Below are positions 34,863 through 44,981 of a stretch of DNA of 64,000 nucleotides, one piece after another (the stretch's first letter is position 1; each line of letters opens with the position of its first letter). The notes beneath the pieces were generated by a model, which saw only the letters and a program-made list of their open reading frames with translations, was not told where the DNA came from and made no database searches. The DNA comes from Escherichia phage Ec_YwIITB1. Both the position numbers and the translations under genes were made by a program. The stretch is taken from sequence record PQ356294.1, one strand, 5' to 3'.

Positions 34863-35336
34863 TTATTTGAATGATTTGACGTACTGAATAGAGCCTTTGC
34901 TATTCACGAAAGCGATTTTACCATTTTTGTTATACATGGTAGCAGTACGCTGATAACCATAAGTTTGTTTACCAGATTGATAACCAACTAATGCGAAATT
35001 ATCTTCACCCATTTTATTCTGCTTAGCGCGGATACGTTCATGACCGTGTGCCATAAGAACCTTAGCGTCGCCAGTTGCAATGGATCTACGAGTTTTTTCA
35101 TCTTCAACTGTATTAACAAAATCGTCAAATGAATCAAATTTAGCATGAGATTTATTATACAGTTTTCCATCTACTGCATAATTATATCCCTGTACATCCA
35201 TCTCAACTTCTGTACCATCATCCAATACAGCAGTGATTTTTTGACCTTTTTTAAATTTCAAAAGATCAGTAAAAGATTCAGCGATAATTTGAGAATTAAT
35301 AGCTGCTTCAGTGATAAATTCTTGATATGTTTTCAT
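34863..35336 (-). CDS. internal-protein-like capsid-targeted protein
   Basis: N-terminus MKTYQEFITE-AA matches the T4 capsid targeting sequence. Confidence 0.6.
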   Translation of the reverse strand: MKTYQEFITEAAINSQIIAESFTDLLKFKKGQKITAVLDDGTEVEMDVQGYNYAVDGKLYNKSHAKFDSFDDFVNTVEDEKTRRSIATGDAKVLMAHGHERIRAKQNKMGEDNFALVGYQSGKQTYGYQRTATMYNKNGKIAFVNSKGSIQYVKSFK

Positions 35337-35345
35337 GTGTTTCCT

Positions 35346-35762
35346 TTAAATGTAAATAGTTTTACCGTAGTATTTATACCAGTATGGCTTCATTAAAATT
35401 TTTTCATAGAGTCGTTGTTGACTCAATTTAATAGCTGATTTGCATGGATTATAATCATTTTTCCATTCTGCTGGAATATCGCTGATGTCAGGAACTTCAG
35501 TATCTTTTATACTAAACCCACGTTTTAAGCATTCCATTATAATGTCTGATTGACGCTTTCGCAAAAATTCTAACTTATCGTAAAAGAACGTGACATGACC
35601 AGAACCTAAAATAAACTCGGAAGATATTTTAAAATCTTTAACCCGTTTACCATTTGCCACGTGTTTACGAACTATACCAAAAACACGTGGCAATTCACGG
35701 TATTCCGCAATTAAATGTTGGTCAGCAAGTTCAGATACTAAAGTCAAATTAATACGAGTCAT
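35346..35762 (-). CDS. denV: endonuclease V (pyrimidine dimer glycosylase)
   Basis: 138 aa, T4 DenV. Confidence 0.9.
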
Positions 35763-35821
35763 TTTATCTCTCCAAGTAACTGTGAATATACTATCGCAGT
35801 TTTAGGAGAAAATAAATAACT

Positions 35822-36352
<531 letters not shown>

Positions 36353-39865: not shown

Positions 39866-40129
39866 TTATTTCATATTATTGAAATATTCTTCTGCGATTT
39901 CGTCGTTATCGTGGTAAACTTTAGAAGACAGTTTAACATAACCTTCTGCTGTAAACATATTAATCACAACTTTTACAGTATACCACTGACCATCTTCATT
40001 ACCCATTACTGCGTAAGTTTCAAACATCGGATGATCAGGACCGATAACTTTAATATCATTCACTGTACGACCGAAATCTTCTGAAACGCATTTCATAAAG
40101 AAGTTGAACAGTTCGCCGTAATTATCCAT
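39866..40129 (-). CDS. hypothetical protein
   Basis: Start trimmed to ATG 40127-40129 with GGAGAA RBS. Confidence 0.55.
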   Translation of the reverse strand: MDNYGELFNFFMKCVSEDFGRTVNDIKVIGPDHPMFETYAVMGNEDGQWYTVKVVINMFTAEGYVKLSSKVYHDNDEIAEEYFNNMK

Positions 40130-40172
40130 TTCATTCTCCAAGTTGTTTTCTATATCAGTAGTTGATAGTTGT

Positions 40173-40202
40173 ATAGTACCATGGAAGAACAGAGATGTAA
40201 AC
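40173..40202 (-). promoter_or_regulatory. early-type promoter module (third copy of the conserved 20-mer)
   Basis: GTTTAC at 40197-40202; TACTAT at 40173-40178. Confidence 0.45.
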
Positions 40203-40325
40203 CGTTTTGTGAAAAAAAGTTTTAGGGAATTCTGGGGCAGGGAGGGGCAATTAAAAGGTAGGATAATATATTATAAAGGGTATAAACTAAATGATGCCTA
40301 GAAAGGCCCAGAAAGGCCTAGATAC

Positions 40326-40351
40326 CAAAAAGCCCTATCATTTAGATAGGG
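40326..40351 (-). terminator. intrinsic terminator downstream of 40360..40923
   Basis: ccctatc-attta-gataggg hairpin followed on minus strand by CUUUUUGG. Confidence 0.55.
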
Positions 40352-40359
40352 ATTTAAAA

Positions 40360-40923
40360 TTATTTATCTAGTTTAGTTATTATAGCTTCTGCAGCAGCTT
40401 TTAGCTTAGATGCGGTGTTAATACGATTTTTAATTTCAGTATACGCGTCGCCAAGAACATCAAGGCTATCAGAATAAACACTTACACTATTGCGTTCGCT
40501 ATTTGAAATAGAACCTTTAGTTTTGCGGTCAAAATCGGTGTACACGTCTTGAAGATCGCGGGCTGCCTTCTTTGCATCATCCAATGCATCAAGAGCTTTA
40601 TTCAAAGCATTAACGTATTTTTTAGTGTCGAACATATTCTTAGAAATTTTAACAGGTGCGCGTTCAGGAGTAGCTAACACAGATTTAGGAACCTGAGCAC
40701 CAGATGCCAATTTCTTGGAAATTTTGAAAAATGCTTTATTGAATTTATTTTCTTGACTCATTGTAAAAGAACTATTATCGATGTTGTACATTTCAATAGC
40801 TTTAGCTTTCCACTTAAGAAAATCGCCGCGGTCTTTTGGGTCCAAGTGGAAGAATACTTTAGTAAGATCTGCTTCAGATGGTAATTTTGCTGCTTCGGTT
40901 AAAAATTCGGCATAGGTTTTCAT
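40360..40923 (-). CDS. internal-protein-like capsid-targeted protein
   Basis: N-terminus MKTYAEFLTE-AA; 187 aa. Confidence 0.6.
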   Translation of the reverse strand: MKTYAEFLTEAAKLPSEADLTKVFFHLDPKDRGDFLKWKAKAIEMYNIDNSSFTMSQENKFNKAFFKISKKLASGAQVPKSVLATPERAPVKISKNMFDTKKYVNALNKALDALDDAKKAARDLQDVYTDFDRKTKGSISNSERNSVSVYSDSLDVLGDAYTEIKNRINTASKLKAAAEAIITKLDK

Positions 40924-41011
40924 TTAAAATCCTTGAAATAATTTATCGGTTGGTTATTAATTATTTATTACTTTGTTATTATCCGTAACAGCATTCTATA
41001 TGTGATTCAAA

Positions 41012-41041
41012 CTAAAAAGCCCCAACCTTTTGGTCAGGGCT
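41012..41041 (-). terminator. intrinsic terminator, repeat copy 1
   Basis: agcccc..aacc-tttt-ggt..ggggct hairpin plus U run. Confidence 0.55.
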
Positions 41042-41048
41042 AAGAATG

Positions 41049-41522
41049 TTATTTGATTTGTTTAGCAGACCAAATGCGGTCTTTAATAATTTTTTGGATG
41101 TCTTCAACATACTCAAGAGAGTGAACATGTGGATTATCTTTGAAACTATAAGCACGGGCTAGCTTTTGGCCTTCGGTTTTGATTACTAAAAGCTCTTTAA
41201 GGATAGCTTCATATTTAGAGATAATTCCTTTAACGATATTTTTTTCTTGTGCAGCTTTAGGATCTGCTTTAGGAGCAGGTTTACCCGAAGCCTTTGCAAA
41301 AGCAGCGCCAGTAGCAACTAAACTTTTCCAGGCCATACTAACTGCATTTCCAGTAAATCCTTCTGCTTTCATGTCGCGAGCAAATTGGAATCGTGATTCG
41401 TCAGAAGCATCTTTATAGGAATATTTACCCGCTGCAATGGCTGCTTTTGCGACAGCTTGAATTTCGGTGCTAGATGCTTCATTTAACACCGCTTCATTTA
41501 AAAATTGAGCATATGATTTCAT
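41049..41522 (-). CDS. internal-protein-like capsid-targeted protein
   Basis: N-terminus MKSYAQFLNE-AV; 157 aa; Ala/Lys-rich. Confidence 0.6.
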   Translation of the reverse strand: MKSYAQFLNEAVLNEASSTEIQAVAKAAIAAGKYSYKDASDESRFQFARDMKAEGFTGNAVSMAWKSLVATGAAFAKASGKPAPKADPKAAQEKNIVKGIISKYEAILKELLVIKTEGQKLARAYSFKDNPHVHSLEYVEDIQKIIKDRIWSAKQIK

Positions 41523-41562
41523 CTTATTTCCTGTTTTAATTCGTGGATTTAATATACTACTG

Positions 41563-41570
41563 TATTTATA
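41563..41570 (-). promoter_or_regulatory. late promoter TATAAATA
   Basis: Plus-strand tatttata about 40 nt upstream of the 41522 start. Confidence 0.55.
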
Positions 41571-41600
41571 CTAAAAAGCCCCAACCTTTCGGTCGGGGCT
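41571..41600 (-). terminator. intrinsic terminator, repeat copy 2 (10 bp stem, GAAA loop, U5)
   Basis: Minus strand AGCCCCGACC-GAAA-GGUUGGGGCU then UUUUU; terminates tRNA-cluster transcripts. Confidence 0.7.
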
Positions 41601-41652
41601 AAGCCTTGCGGCAACCTTGTCGGGGTTCCACCTGCTAAGGCAAGTGTTTGTA

Positions 41653-41743
41653 CGAAACGCCGGGATTTGAACCCGGTTATTAAGCAGTTGACGCTACTCA
41701 ATATTTTTAAAAGGCCATATCTCAACCATATCCGAACGTTCCG
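41653..41743 (-). ncRNA. tRNA-like structured RNA (candidate stable-RNA equivalent)
   Basis: 7 bp acceptor-like stem CGGAACG/CGUUUCG and a perfect T-arm CCGGG-UUCAAAU-CCCGG, but no canonical anticodon arm. Confidence 0.3.
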
Positions 41744-41916
41744 TCAAAAACGCTACTCGGCTTACAGCAAAAATATTTCCTCGAATCGATAATTCTGTGC
41801 GCCGTTTCAGCTGTGATGTAAGGGGACATTAACAGATCGTAAAGATTTGTTAATGCCAGTCCTTACCCAGGGAACATCAGTCCGACGACTTACCGGTAGC
41901 GACCCGGTTTCTTGTT

Positions 41917-41992
41917 TGGTCGAGGCAGTAGGGATCGAACCTACGACCTAGGACTTAGAAGGTCCTTGCTCTTCCTTCTGAGCTATGCCTCG
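41917..41992 (-). tRNA. tRNA-Arg (anticodon UCU)
   Basis: Manual cloverleaf: acceptor CGAGGCA/UGCCUCG, loop CUUCUAA, T-loop UUCGAUC, CCA encoded. Confidence 0.8.
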
Positions 41993-42047
41993 AACCCATG
42001 ACTACGAGAATCACAATCTCGAGTTCTACCAACTGAACTACGGCCAC
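41993..42047 (-). pseudogene. 3'-truncated tRNA-His-like gene (GUG anticodon arm intact) fused to the tRNA-Arg 5' end
   Basis: Acceptor 5' strand, D-arm and CGAGA-UUGUGAU-UCUCG anticodon arm present; T-arm 3' half and acceptor 3' strand absent. Confidence 0.5.
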
Positions 42048-42141
42048 ATTAATACCTACTCCAACAATCAAGATGTCTTCACACGAAATTAAGAGAAGAG
42101 TGATCAGTTCAACCCCTATAATCGCGTCAAGTAGATATTAA

Positions 42142-42157
42142 TGTGACAGTTGTCACA
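42142..42157. repeat. 16 bp near-perfect palindrome tgtgacagttgtcaca
   Basis: Inverted repeat between the tRNA-His remnant and tRNA-Asn. Confidence 0.5.
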
Positions 42158-42161
42158 AATT

Positions 42162-42236
42162 TGGCGGACGTGATAGGATTCGAACCTATAACCAATCGCT
42201 TAACAGGCGATCGCTCTGCCATTGAGCTACACATCC
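42162..42236 (-). tRNA. tRNA-Asn (anticodon GUU)
   Basis: Manual cloverleaf: acceptor GGAUGUG/CACGUCC, loop CUGUUAA, CCA encoded. Confidence 0.75.
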
Positions 42237-42240
42237 AAAT

Positions 42241-42327
42241 TGGTGGGGAGTGGTGGAGTCGAACCACCCGAGTCGCAATGACAATGGATTTACAGTCCAC
42301 ACCGCTACCTCTACGGGATAACTCCCC
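42241..42327 (-). tRNA. tRNA-Tyr (anticodon GUA), class II with long variable arm
   Basis: Manual cloverleaf: acceptor GGGGAGU/ACUCCCC, loop CUGUAAA, T-arm GGUGG-UUCGACU-CCACC, CCA encoded. Confidence 0.7.
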
Positions 42328-42340
42328 TTAATTCTTAATT

Positions 42341-42415
42341 TGGTGGCCCTGGGTGGAATTGAACCACCATCTGGCGATTATGAGTCGCTTGCTTGAACCT
42401 TCCAGCTACAGGGCC
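42341..42415 (-). tRNA. tRNA-Ile/Met type (anticodon CAU)
   Basis: Manual cloverleaf: acceptor GGCCCUG/CAGGGCC, loop CUCAUAA, CCA encoded. Confidence 0.75.
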
Positions 42416-42416
42416 T

Positions 42417-42492
42417 TGGTGCTGATTGACGGAATTGAACCGCCGACCTTCCCATTACAAGTGAGTTGCTCTACCTACTGAGCTAAATCAGC
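42417..42492 (-). tRNA. tRNA-Thr (anticodon UGU)
   Basis: Manual cloverleaf, loop CUUGUAA, CCA encoded. Confidence 0.8.
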
Positions 42493-42497
42493 AAAAC

Positions 42498-42587
42498 TGG
42501 CGGAGGCGATAGGATTTGAACCTATGAGTCGCCGGAGCGACTGCCGGTTTTCAAGACCGGTGCATTAAACCACTCTGCCACGCCTCC
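42498..42587 (-). tRNA. tRNA-Ser (anticodon UGA), long variable arm
   Basis: Manual cloverleaf: acceptor GGAGGCG/CGCCUCC, loop CUUGAAA, CCA encoded. Confidence 0.8.
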
Positions 42588-42589
42588 AG

Positions 42590-42663
42590 TCTCCATACAA
42601 GGATTTGAACCTTGGACCTCCTGATCCCAAATCAGGCGCTCTACCAAACTGAGCTACACGGAG
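42590..42663 (-). tRNA. tRNA-Pro (anticodon UGG)
   Basis: Manual cloverleaf, loop UUUGGGA; CCA not encoded. Confidence 0.8.
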
Positions 42664-42673
42664 TAAATTAAAT

Positions 42674-42747
<74 letters not shown>

Positions 42748-42752
42748 AAATT

Positions 42753-42839
42753 TGGTGCGAGAAGTGGGACTCGAACCCACAAGGAAATCATTCCGCAGCA
42801 TTTTAAGTGCTGTGCCTTTACCAATTTGACCATTCTCGC
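42753..42839 (-). tRNA. tRNA-Leu (anticodon UAA), long variable arm
   Basis: Manual cloverleaf: acceptor GCGAGAA/UUCUCGC, loop CUUAAAA, CCA encoded. Confidence 0.8.
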
Positions 42840-42840
42840 G

Positions 42841-42913
42841 CTGGGAATAAAGGACTCGAACCTTTGCATCCTGGAATCAAAATCCAGTGCCTTACCAACT
42901 TGGCTAATTCCCA
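42841..42913 (-). tRNA. tRNA-Gln (anticodon UUG)
   Basis: Manual cloverleaf: acceptor UGGGAAU/AUUCCCA, loop UUUUGAU; CCA not encoded. Confidence 0.8.
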
Positions 42914-43017
42914 ATTATTAACAAAGGCTCTCAAGCAAGAACCCTTGATGATAGAGGGTATTAATCAGTGCGGTATGAGTTAATAATAACAAATAATTCT
43001 TAAAGCATATTTACCAT

Positions 43018-43302
43018 TTATGATAATACATATTTAATGCATTCAAGACCCAAAGGATTCTTGAAAATATCATATTCAAGAGGACCTTTTTCTGTTTCAA
43101 TAAAGAAATCAAAATTTACTGTATTAAATTTACGGTCTTCCTTTACTAATTTAACTTGAGAAGATGAACGGTCAATGTAAACCTTTTCAACTTCAAAATA
43201 TGTTAAAATGCCATAATCATCAATCAAAGCTTTAGCTGCTTCTTGATCATATTTATATCCATTTTCAATGGATGATACTTTCGCATAAAGAATCACTATC
43301 AA
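43018..43302 (-). CDS. hypothetical protein
   Basis: 94 aa ORF. Confidence 0.55.
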   Translation of the reverse strand: MIVILYAKVSSIENGYKYDQEAAKALIDDYGILTYFEVEKVYIDRSSSQVKLVKEDRKFNTVNFDFFIETEKGPLEYDIFKNPLGLECIKYVLS

Positions 43303-43896: not shown

Positions 43897-43966
43897 TTTA
43901 TTCTCCTCGGTAGTTGATAGGGTAATAGTATCACAACTAAAACCCTATGTAAACAACTTTGTGAAA

Positions 43967-44224
43967 TTATTTTAAATCTTCTAATCGTTTCTTCATCTTA
44001 GAACCATTTTTAGCAATTTCTCCTGCATCGGAGCATAACGCTAAAAGTGCTTTAACTTTAGTTTGGTCTCCTTTAAAAGATGAAGGATTGACCGCAGCAG
44101 CAAGTTCTTTAATACGAGAGAAAAGACGCTCAGCTTCAGCTAAAGCCATTCCAAGCTTTACTTCCATACCGTGGGAAGATTCAGTGATAGTAGTTTTTGT
44201 AGCAAACTCTTTGAAAGTTTTCAT
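43967..44224 (-). CDS. internal protein I-like small protein
   Basis: 85 aa; N-terminus MKTFKEFATK resembles the capsid targeting sequence; sits upstream of 57B as ipI does in T4. Confidence 0.5.
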   Translation of the reverse strand: MKTFKEFATKTTITESSHGMEVKLGMALAEAERLFSRIKELAAAVNPSSFKGDQTKVKALLALCSDAGEIAKNGSKMKKRLEDLK

Positions 44225-44296
44225 TTTATTTTCCTAATTAATTTTGATGAGGTAATAGTATCACTACCTCATCAGCATGTAAACAACTTTGTGAAA

Positions 44297-44981
<685 letters not shown>

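Follow-up and report, generated by a model that had tools for sequence, protein, structure and literature searches.

A capsid targeting sequence (CTS) directs proteins of T4-type phages onto the prohead core, after which they are trimmed by the protease gp21 and injected (PMC9026906). This is the case of the internal proteins (Ips) of T4, for which the first 10 residues of IPIII are enough to package foreign proteins and mutagenesis of IPIII has assigned residues 4 and 7 to targeting and residues 8 and 10 to processing (PMC9026906). Ip1, Ip2 and Ip3 each inhibit a distinct GmrSD type IV enzyme, without cross-protection (PMC12373910), and IPIII that lacks its CTS is active in the cytoplasm (PMC9391042). 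Recent work describes two Ip loci for T-even phages (PMC12373910). We describe here two adjacent genes, A and B, in a 64,000-nucleotide stretch of the Escherichia phage Ec_YwIITB1 (sequence record PQ356294.1; this whole stretch, a Tequatrovirus sequence, is called the window). It is probable, in our judgement, that A and B are two diverged members of an unannotated family of T4-type injected head proteins, borne on cassettes and most likely directed against a host nuclease.

Other described systems are close to this locus. The further internal proteins Ip4-Ip13/IpIV-IpVI (Repoila et al., 1994; PST KF208315) are, like A and B, recognised by a CTS-like leader on a variable small open reading frame (ORF). 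They differ from A and B by their location, at the two classical loci 57B-trna.4 and e-denV-vs.8, and A and B are longer, two-domain proteins without an Ip name among the records listed. As for cassettes, recombination between repeated promoter/terminator elements gives insertions and deletions in T4-type phages (PMC2839356, PMC4122927), and PeSL cassettes (Arbiol et al., 2010; Comeau et al., 2014) and lambdoid morons are compared with the A/B locus below. The minus-strand coding order of this locus is the tRNA cluster, the rnaD and rnaC counterparts, gene B, gene A, e.8, e.6 and e.5 onward (Table 1). Over 1.35 kb, this region shares 98.7% identity with that of Escherichia phage ime09, and about 600 T4-like phage records match it.

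Table 1. Positions, in the window, of genes A and B and of the signals and genes around them (5' to 3' on the minus strand, from top to bottom)
Feature	Position	Strand	Remarks
Terminator T1 (hairpin and T-run)	41572..41600	-	closes the tRNA/rnaC transcription unit; stem 41600-41577, 10 pairs; upstream of B
T4-type late promoter box TATAAATA	41563..41570	-	abuts the T-run of T1; 40 nucleotides upstream of the B ATG
Gene B, 157 aa	41049..41522	-	CTS codons 1-10 = 41493-41522; three-helix N-domain ~18-75; Pro/Ala/Lys linker; C-terminal helical hairpin
Terminator T2 and decayed late promoter box	41005..41044	-	between B and A; stem 41041-41018, 10 pairs; AGTTTGAAT replaces AGTATAAAT
AATAAATA, 7/8 match to late promoter box	40962..40969	-	38 nucleotides upstream of the A ATG
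Gene A, 187 aa	40360..40923	-	CTS codons 1-10 = 40894-40923; helical N-domain; disordered Pro/Ala-rich linker ~77-98; C-terminal helical hairpin
Terminator T3, A's own	40328..40351	-	stem 40351-40333, CCCTATC/GATAGGG; differs from T1/T2
Sigma-70/T4 early-type promoter of e.8	40173..40201	-	TTTACA-17-TACTAT with TG; conserved right-hand flank of the insertion slot
Gene e.8	39866..40141	-	downstream of A; conserved right-hand flank gene

Capsid targeting sequences and domains of A and B

The N-termini of A (MKTYAEFLTE/AA) and B (MKSYAQFLNE/AV) resemble that of T4 IpII/IpIII (MKTYQEFIAE/A), the slash marking the cleavage position. Both retain Y4, F7, L8 and E10 followed by Ala, so that the gp21 motif, (L/I)-x-E at residues 8-10 and then a small residue, reads L8-T-E10/A in A and L8-N-E10/A in B; an additional L-N-E is found at residues 13-15 of B. 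A T4-type CTS at the start of both proteins had been proposed from the letters of the DNA, and it is borne out: the two ORFs lie on the minus strand where they had been placed and all the critical residues are present. When a relaxed CTS pattern is run over the six frames of the window, it is found in three ORFs only, namely A, B and 34863..35336. The CTS codons of A and B differ, often synonymously (ATGAAAACCTATGCCGAATTTTTAACCGAA versus ATGAAATCATATGCTCAATTTTTAAATGAA), which places the conservation at the protein level. Residues 4, 7, 8 and 10 are kept in all the family members examined, across genera, and the family stays in frame, with its CTS, down to 27-31% identity.

The comparison with T4 IpI, IpII and IpIII goes beyond the 10-residue CTS (Y4, F7, L/I8, E10, Ala11). 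In both cases, the mature products are small and basic, the genes are non-essential and variably present, the mature domains are unrelated or fast-evolving, and the genes lie in a hyperplastic region beside the tRNA cluster. After cleavage at Glu10, A is predicted to have a mass of 19.7 kDa and a pI of 9.46, and B a mass of 16.0 kDa and a pI of 9.50, compared to 20.4 kDa and 9.65 for IpIII*, 9.8 kDa and 9.56 for IpII*, and 8.0 kDa and 9.02 for IpI*. There is, in contrast, no sequence similarity past the CTS, the only part that BLASTP aligns, and the T4 Ips belong to phrog_3499, 7857 and 5341 (Pfam PF26874), A and B to phrog_2280. The locus also differs, as that of A and B, between e.8 and rnaC, is empty in T4, and B has a terminator-fused late promoter where T4 has early-type promoters with inverted repeats. 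In a tblastn search of the T4 Ips against the window, A is matched in its N-terminal leader only, with non-significant E values of 0.14 and 0.85, and B is unmatched. A comparison of A and B with IPI* and the solved inhibitors shows no similarity.

The sequence-only reading had held A and B to be otherwise unrelated to each other, which has to be given up. Both match phrog_2280 over their full length (E 1e-53 for A, 7e-61 for B). A direct BLASTP of A against B aligns the CTS only, and hhalign with shallow, near-identical alignments aligns the CTS or a weak C-terminal motif. An exhaustive HMMER search with A over 1.84 billion cluster representatives retrieves, apart from fragments and members of its own cluster, essentially a single remote relative, P0027 (31% identity). 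P0027 carries a CTS and connects A to Mosigvirus ESh15 and Karamvirus KMB19 proteins. When profiles of the A and B groups are compared by hhalign, residues 99-174 of A align with residues 96-156 of B with a probability of 95.8% (E 8e-9), a homology that emerged only once the remote relatives P0027, ESh15 and KMB19 were added. The likeness is visible by eye between VKGIVNKYEKILALL of KMB19 and VKGIISKYEAILKEL of B. On these profiles, the C-terminal domains of A and B are remote homologues and the N-domains differ.

In AlphaFold models, both proteins start with a CTS helix, followed by a small N-domain of three helices, a disordered Pro/Ala/Lys linker and a long C-terminal helical hairpin. The N-domain of B recurs, with a probability of 99.8%, in Klebsiella and Yersinia phage proteins that have another C-terminal half, which makes the family modular. 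An assignment of the C-domain of these Klebsiella/Yersinia proteins (P0021/P0022) to the A type was considered on a shared DTPDLY motif and a BLAST E near 1e-5 from a very small database, and was rejected as hhalign gave no support. The matches of A or B to cytochrome b562, TraA and ETV6 were likewise discarded, as sub-threshold noise. A is found by tblastn in 164 phage records and B in 511. All of the 120 matches listed are annotated as hypothetical, none with an Ip name, and PHROG 2280 bears the label "unknown function", while those of IpI, IpII, IpIII and IpIV are annotated as internal proteins.

Gene B contains a run of seven A (41239-41245, codons Q-E-K-N), and truncated B variants of 108-111 aa turn out-of-frame right after QEK. 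They belong to two different sub-lineages, P0017 (including Shigella phage SfPhi01) and P0020 (a Mosigvirus-type sequence), and the out-of-frame tail of P0017 is consistent with the loss of one A. The truncated product would comprise the CTS, the N-domain and the linker only. The run could be a mutational hot spot, the source of a sequencing artefact or the site of a regulated event.

Insertion of cassettes after the tRNA/rnaC terminator

A spread sample of the matches to 40100-41800 was sorted by coverage class and the junctions of representatives were compared on the coding strand. Four allelic states are found. The empty allele of T4, in the same low-coverage class as T2, T6 and RB7, has the junction ...GGTTGGGGCTTTTT/GGTATCTA... 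The B-only allele of slur03 and LYE-01 runs from the hairpin/AGTATAAATA through B to a second hairpin ending GGGGCTTTT(T)/GGTATCTAGG. The A-only allele of T4_ev151, Shfl2 and RB69 runs from the hairpin/AGTTTGAATCAC through A to GATAGGGCTTTTT/GGTATCTAGG, with one-base variants of the T-run in Shfl2 and RB69. The tandem allele, a B cassette followed by an A cassette, is that of the window and of fPS-90, ime09 and pSs-1 (127 records altogether). All the breakpoints fall precisely where a terminator T-run ends, and the empty allele retains one hairpin where the B-only phages have two. The four states and the position of the breakpoints make A and B true cassettes, as had been supposed for B: each gene, an ORF with a leader before it and a terminator of its own, forms a self-contained cassette whose insertion point is the very end of the T-run of the tRNA/rnaC terminator. 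The e.8 flank of the slot is collinear between the window and T4, in which the rnaC-e.8 interval has no gene but one terminator hairpin and then about 200 nucleotides up to the e.8 early promoter.

The element found at the junctions is a duplication. Positions 41005-41044 are a 40-nucleotide direct repeat of 41564-41603, with 90% identity. T1 (folding energy -20.3 kcal/mol, z -4.2) has an identical hairpin in T4 (L001 6832-6858), in single copy at the empty site. Its 28-nucleotide core differs from that of T2 (-16.6 kcal/mol, z -3.0) by two mismatches, one in the loop and the other changing a G-C pair to G-U, and has no further copy in the window (0/100 shuffles matched). T2 closes the B cassette at its 3' end and opens the A cassette at its 5' end. 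For B, the composite of terminator hairpin and TATAAATA is thus duplicated on either side, the late box after T2 being decayed to TTTGAATC. A, in contrast, ends in the different T3 (-10.5 kcal/mol, z -3.0) and shares with the repeat element only the 5' copy and, at its 3' end, the nine nucleotides GGGCTTTTT, in which T3 ends, ahead of the conserved flank GGTATCTAGG. A bracketing of both genes by a repeated terminator, as the heading of the first description suggested, therefore holds for B, between the near-identical T1 and T2, and does not for A.

The late promoter attributed to B is recovered, as TATAAATA lies at 41570-41563, straight after the T-run of T1; from its consensus, it is expected to act as a promoter. 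Upstream of A, only the AATAAATA variant is present, which the A-only phages T4_ev151, Shfl2 and RB69 retain, a similar AATAAATA being found upstream of the B homologue of RPN187. A search for a MotA box or a sigma-70 promoter upstream of A, by eye and by scan, gave nothing convincing, the sole scan match being the weak ATCACA-17-GATAAT. Transcription of A could result either from read-through of T2 or T1, or from activity of the AATAAATA variant. T4 ipI, ipII and ipIII are each preceded by a sigma-70/T4 early-type promoter with embedded inverted repeats, for example GAATTGTGA...TCACAATTC, and TATAAATA is absent from the 110 nucleotides upstream of each of the three. A late promoter is thus no prerequisite for an Ip.

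The B cassette is reminiscent of PeSL cassettes, in which a composite regulatory element with a terminator hairpin is directly repeated around an accessory ORF and present as a single copy at the empty allele, the cassette supplying its own promoter and terminator. It differs from them in that the promoter is a gp55-type late box, TATAAATA, abutting the T-run, and not a sigma-70 early promoter: no -35/-10 pair is found in the A/B repeat element, only TATAAATA or its decayed copy. Furthermore, the repeat is found twice in the 64 kb, both copies being at this locus, and does not belong to a dispersed family. Lambdoid morons are similar as lone accessory genes with their own promoter and terminator between conserved genes; here, however, the regulatory element is itself the insertion site and the flanking repeat, and the gene is co-oriented with its neighbours. 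Cassettes would be added, removed or swapped by recombination between copies of the hairpin element, or in the e.8 and rnaC flanks during mixed infection; the position of the breakpoints agrees with either route.

The same slot is occupied by the family in five Tevenvirinae genera. Family members directly follow the tRNA/rnaC terminator in Mosigvirus (RPN187, AV115, ESh15), Dhakavirus (WG01) and Karamvirus (KMB19), and also in Klebsiella phage KpM198, whose family protein is common to Jiaodavirus KP1. In most slots, a hairpin with TATAAATA directly behind it, 33-44 nucleotides before the start codon, is found even where the sequence of the hairpin differs; this arrangement precedes the family members of slur03, LYE-01, WG01, ESh15, KMB19 and KpM198. 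The late box is present before family members in four other genera. The slot is empty in PST, a phage whose annotation comes from the laboratory behind the names IpIV to IpVI. In WG01 (1924-2478), the slot holds the B homologue and a 184-aa ORF without a CTS, with its own hairpins and an N-terminus that looks hydrophobic (MKLLKYLSWVLLVPLDF...), which indicates that the slot also takes non-Ip cargo.

Several rearranged copies were encountered. In the annotation of RB69, gene A (L002 1770-2332) is split between the overlapping ORFs ORF149c and ORF148c, and is hence frameshifted; it is likewise in two pieces in G4500 and OE5505. In phage vB_Eco_F26 (OP870145; L019 3210-4626), which also has truncated B and IpII, a 40-aa chimeric ORF made of the e.8 N-terminus and the A C-terminus follows A and precedes an intact e.8. 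It is a partial tandem duplication across the A/e.8 junction, and shows only that rearrangements occur at the locus. Two metagenome contigs, P0011 (L020) and P0025, have chimeric ORFs with microhomology at both junctions. One chimera joins residues 97-122 of A to NudE, removing e.8 through e.2; the other joins a Trna.3-like N-terminus to the last 29 residues of B, and would remove the tRNA cluster. These chimeras suggest natural deletions ending inside A/B-type genes.

Predicted packaging and injection, and possible targets

If the T4 pathway applies, the 10-residue CTS would dock A and B onto the prohead core and the prohead protease gp21 would cleave after Glu10 (L-x-E/A), the expected new N-terminal peptides being AAKLPSEADLTK for A and AVLNEASSTEIQAVAK or ASSTEIQAVAK for B. 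The basic mature proteins, of about 20 and 16 kDa, would remain in the DNA-filled head, enter the cell with the DNA and, once inside, most likely neutralise a nuclease in the first line of host defence. If Ip1, Ip2 and Ip3 are taken as a guide, our best guess for this nuclease is a particular GmrSD-type type IV restriction variant. An injected function is suggested by class membership, through the CTS, which makes packaging of A and B likely and a role against host defences plausible. Polymorphism, shuffled domains and now and then a frameshifted allele are what one would expect of an accessory gene in an arms race. The anti-defence idea, initially based on an anti-restriction factor among the injected proteins of T4, agrees with what is now known more closely than was first realised: all three T4 Ips are reported as inhibitors of distinct GmrSD enzymes (PMC12373910).

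Several points weigh against this proposal. In tests on GmrSD variants, Ip4-10 show no reproducible inhibition of the eight systems active against T-even phages in that work (PMC12373910), so that there is no rule by which an Ip implies a GmrSD inhibitor. A search by locus tag, in the fPS-90 paper and in the ValerieMcCarty supplements found no report of virion proteomics for the A/B family. The only virion proteome of a Jiaodavirus that was examined is from a phage without the gene at the slot. Pfam, NCBIfam, PDB-sequence and fold searches of A and B gave no informative match, and the model of A is of low confidence (mean pLDDT 61, versus 74 for B). Gene A has no TATAAATA, and hence no canonical late promoter. 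Finally, frameshifted or truncated copies exist (RB69 ORF148c/149c; B variants P0017 and P0020), which indicates that the genes are dispensable in some hosts.

The same facts have to be confronted with other explanations. A and B could be packaged CTS proteins with a structural or physical role, in core or prohead assembly or in neutralising or condensing DNA, and without action on host defence. The basicity of both mature proteins (pI 9.5) and their predicted helical hairpins with disordered Lys/Pro/Ala linkers would suit such a role. T4 IPIII-minus mutants build up polyheads and Ips co-purify with the scaffold protein gp22 (PMC9026906); as T4-type ipII and ipIII are absent from the window, A, which is IpIII-sized, could substitute for them. 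T4, T2, T6 and PST nevertheless make normal heads with the slot empty, and accessory genes of an arms race typically vary in presence, swap domains and have frameshifted alleles, as seen here. In addition, all three Ips of known function are anti-restriction factors (PMC12373910), and we regard a structural role as unlikely. Much less likely still is that the CTS-like N-termini are vestigial or copied by recombination, A and B being ordinary, unpackaged cytoplasmic proteins, late or early. The 5' ends of A and B do have a common 42-nucleotide stretch of 76% identity that includes the ribosome-binding region (Shine-Dalgarno AAGGA for A, AGGAA for B), and the lack of a canonical late promoter before A points the same way. 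But residues 4, 7, 8 and 10 are kept across genera, in all the family members examined, despite differing codons and neighbouring residues, and the 10-residue leader of T4 suffices for packaging (PMC9026906); timing is no argument either, as the T4 ip genes themselves follow early-type promoters.

It is somewhat less unlikely than a structural role, though still doubtful, that A and B are injected effectors with a target other than GmrSD, either another nuclease-based or abortive-infection defence, or a host function in an Alt-like take-over. The lack of reproducible inhibition by Ip4-10 is in favour of it, as is the reach of the family to Klebsiella and Enterobacter phages. A is also present, in frameshifted form, in RB69, whose DNA contains arabinosyl-hydroxymethylcytosine and not glucosyl-hydroxymethylcytosine (PMC6024577). 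There is, however, no positive pointer to another target, and the three characterised Ips, without exception, hit GmrSD-family enzymes.

Among these readings, injected proteins acting on a host nuclease are preferred. With them, the tRNA/rnaC slot would make a third Ip locus, beyond the two described. A wider and more tentative possibility is that the slot is a third Ip locus across Tevenvirinae, in which the hairpin and the late promoter serve as a Campbell-type homology site for insertion and excision, phrog_2280 mixes at least two N-domains on a shared C-hairpin, and inhibitors are supplied for defences that have no counter-measure. Examples would be the five GmrSD clusters that act on T-even phages and to which no inhibitor has been assigned among the Ips.

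Further Ip-type genes of the window and meaning of the A/B family

The third CTS protein of the window, 34863..35336 (minus strand, 157 aa, MKTYQEFITE/AA), belongs to phrog_3155, "internal virion protein", and is of the IpIV type of PST. Its TATAAATA, at 35378-35371, lies inside the 3' end of denV. An IpIV-type homologue of it, gp127 of Klebsiella phage ValerieMcCarty03, was reported in purified virions (66 peptide-spectrum matches; PMC13119998); this is a different family from A/B. In the interval 35346..36316, denV directly follows the lysozyme gene e, the intervening ipIII and ipII of T4 being absent, and a tblastn search of the window for the mature region of IpII/IpIII gave no match. An IpV-type gene (43967..44224, 85 aa, phrog_3499) is flanked by 69-nucleotide direct repeats, 43914-43982 and 44244-44312, with 84% identity. 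Within this repeat are an inverted repeat and a promoter of the T4 early type (GTTTACA...GATACTAT), by which the IpV-type gene resembles a classical PeSL; a related copy is found at 40155-40214, before e.8.

In the tRNA region, a search of Rfam over 40000-43200 returns tRNAs only; neither the rnaC nor the rnaD homologue belongs to a family in Rfam. ARAGORN calls a tRNA-Arg (41917-41992) and a tRNA-His (41976-42048) that overlap by 17 nucleotides, Rfam calls the Arg gene alone, and in slur03 the Arg and His genes are separate and adjacent. The tRNA-His gene of the window may be truncated or miscalled.

What is new here is unannotated members of the Ip type at a new locus; the Ip class and the shuffling mechanism are already known, the present case being a late-gene variant of the latter. 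The duplication of the terminator and late promoter carries the PeSL idea, that regulatory elements act as recombination handles, over to late genes. The A/B family is found in about 500 sequenced phages of five genera, and is "hypothetical" or of "unknown function" in GenBank and PHROGs. For the annotation of therapeutic T4-like phages, this matters as host range may depend on the cassettes carried. Reports published since 2025 describe all three T4 Ips as inhibitors, each specific to a different GmrSD enzyme, and no inhibitor is known so far for several of the GmrSD variants by which T-even phages are blocked; the CTS-bearing A/B family offers candidates, and its absence from T2, T4 and T6 makes gain-of-function tests easy. 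That further Ips exist would not surprise a specialist. Yet the family is widespread, and can be tested directly against defences for which no inhibitor is known.

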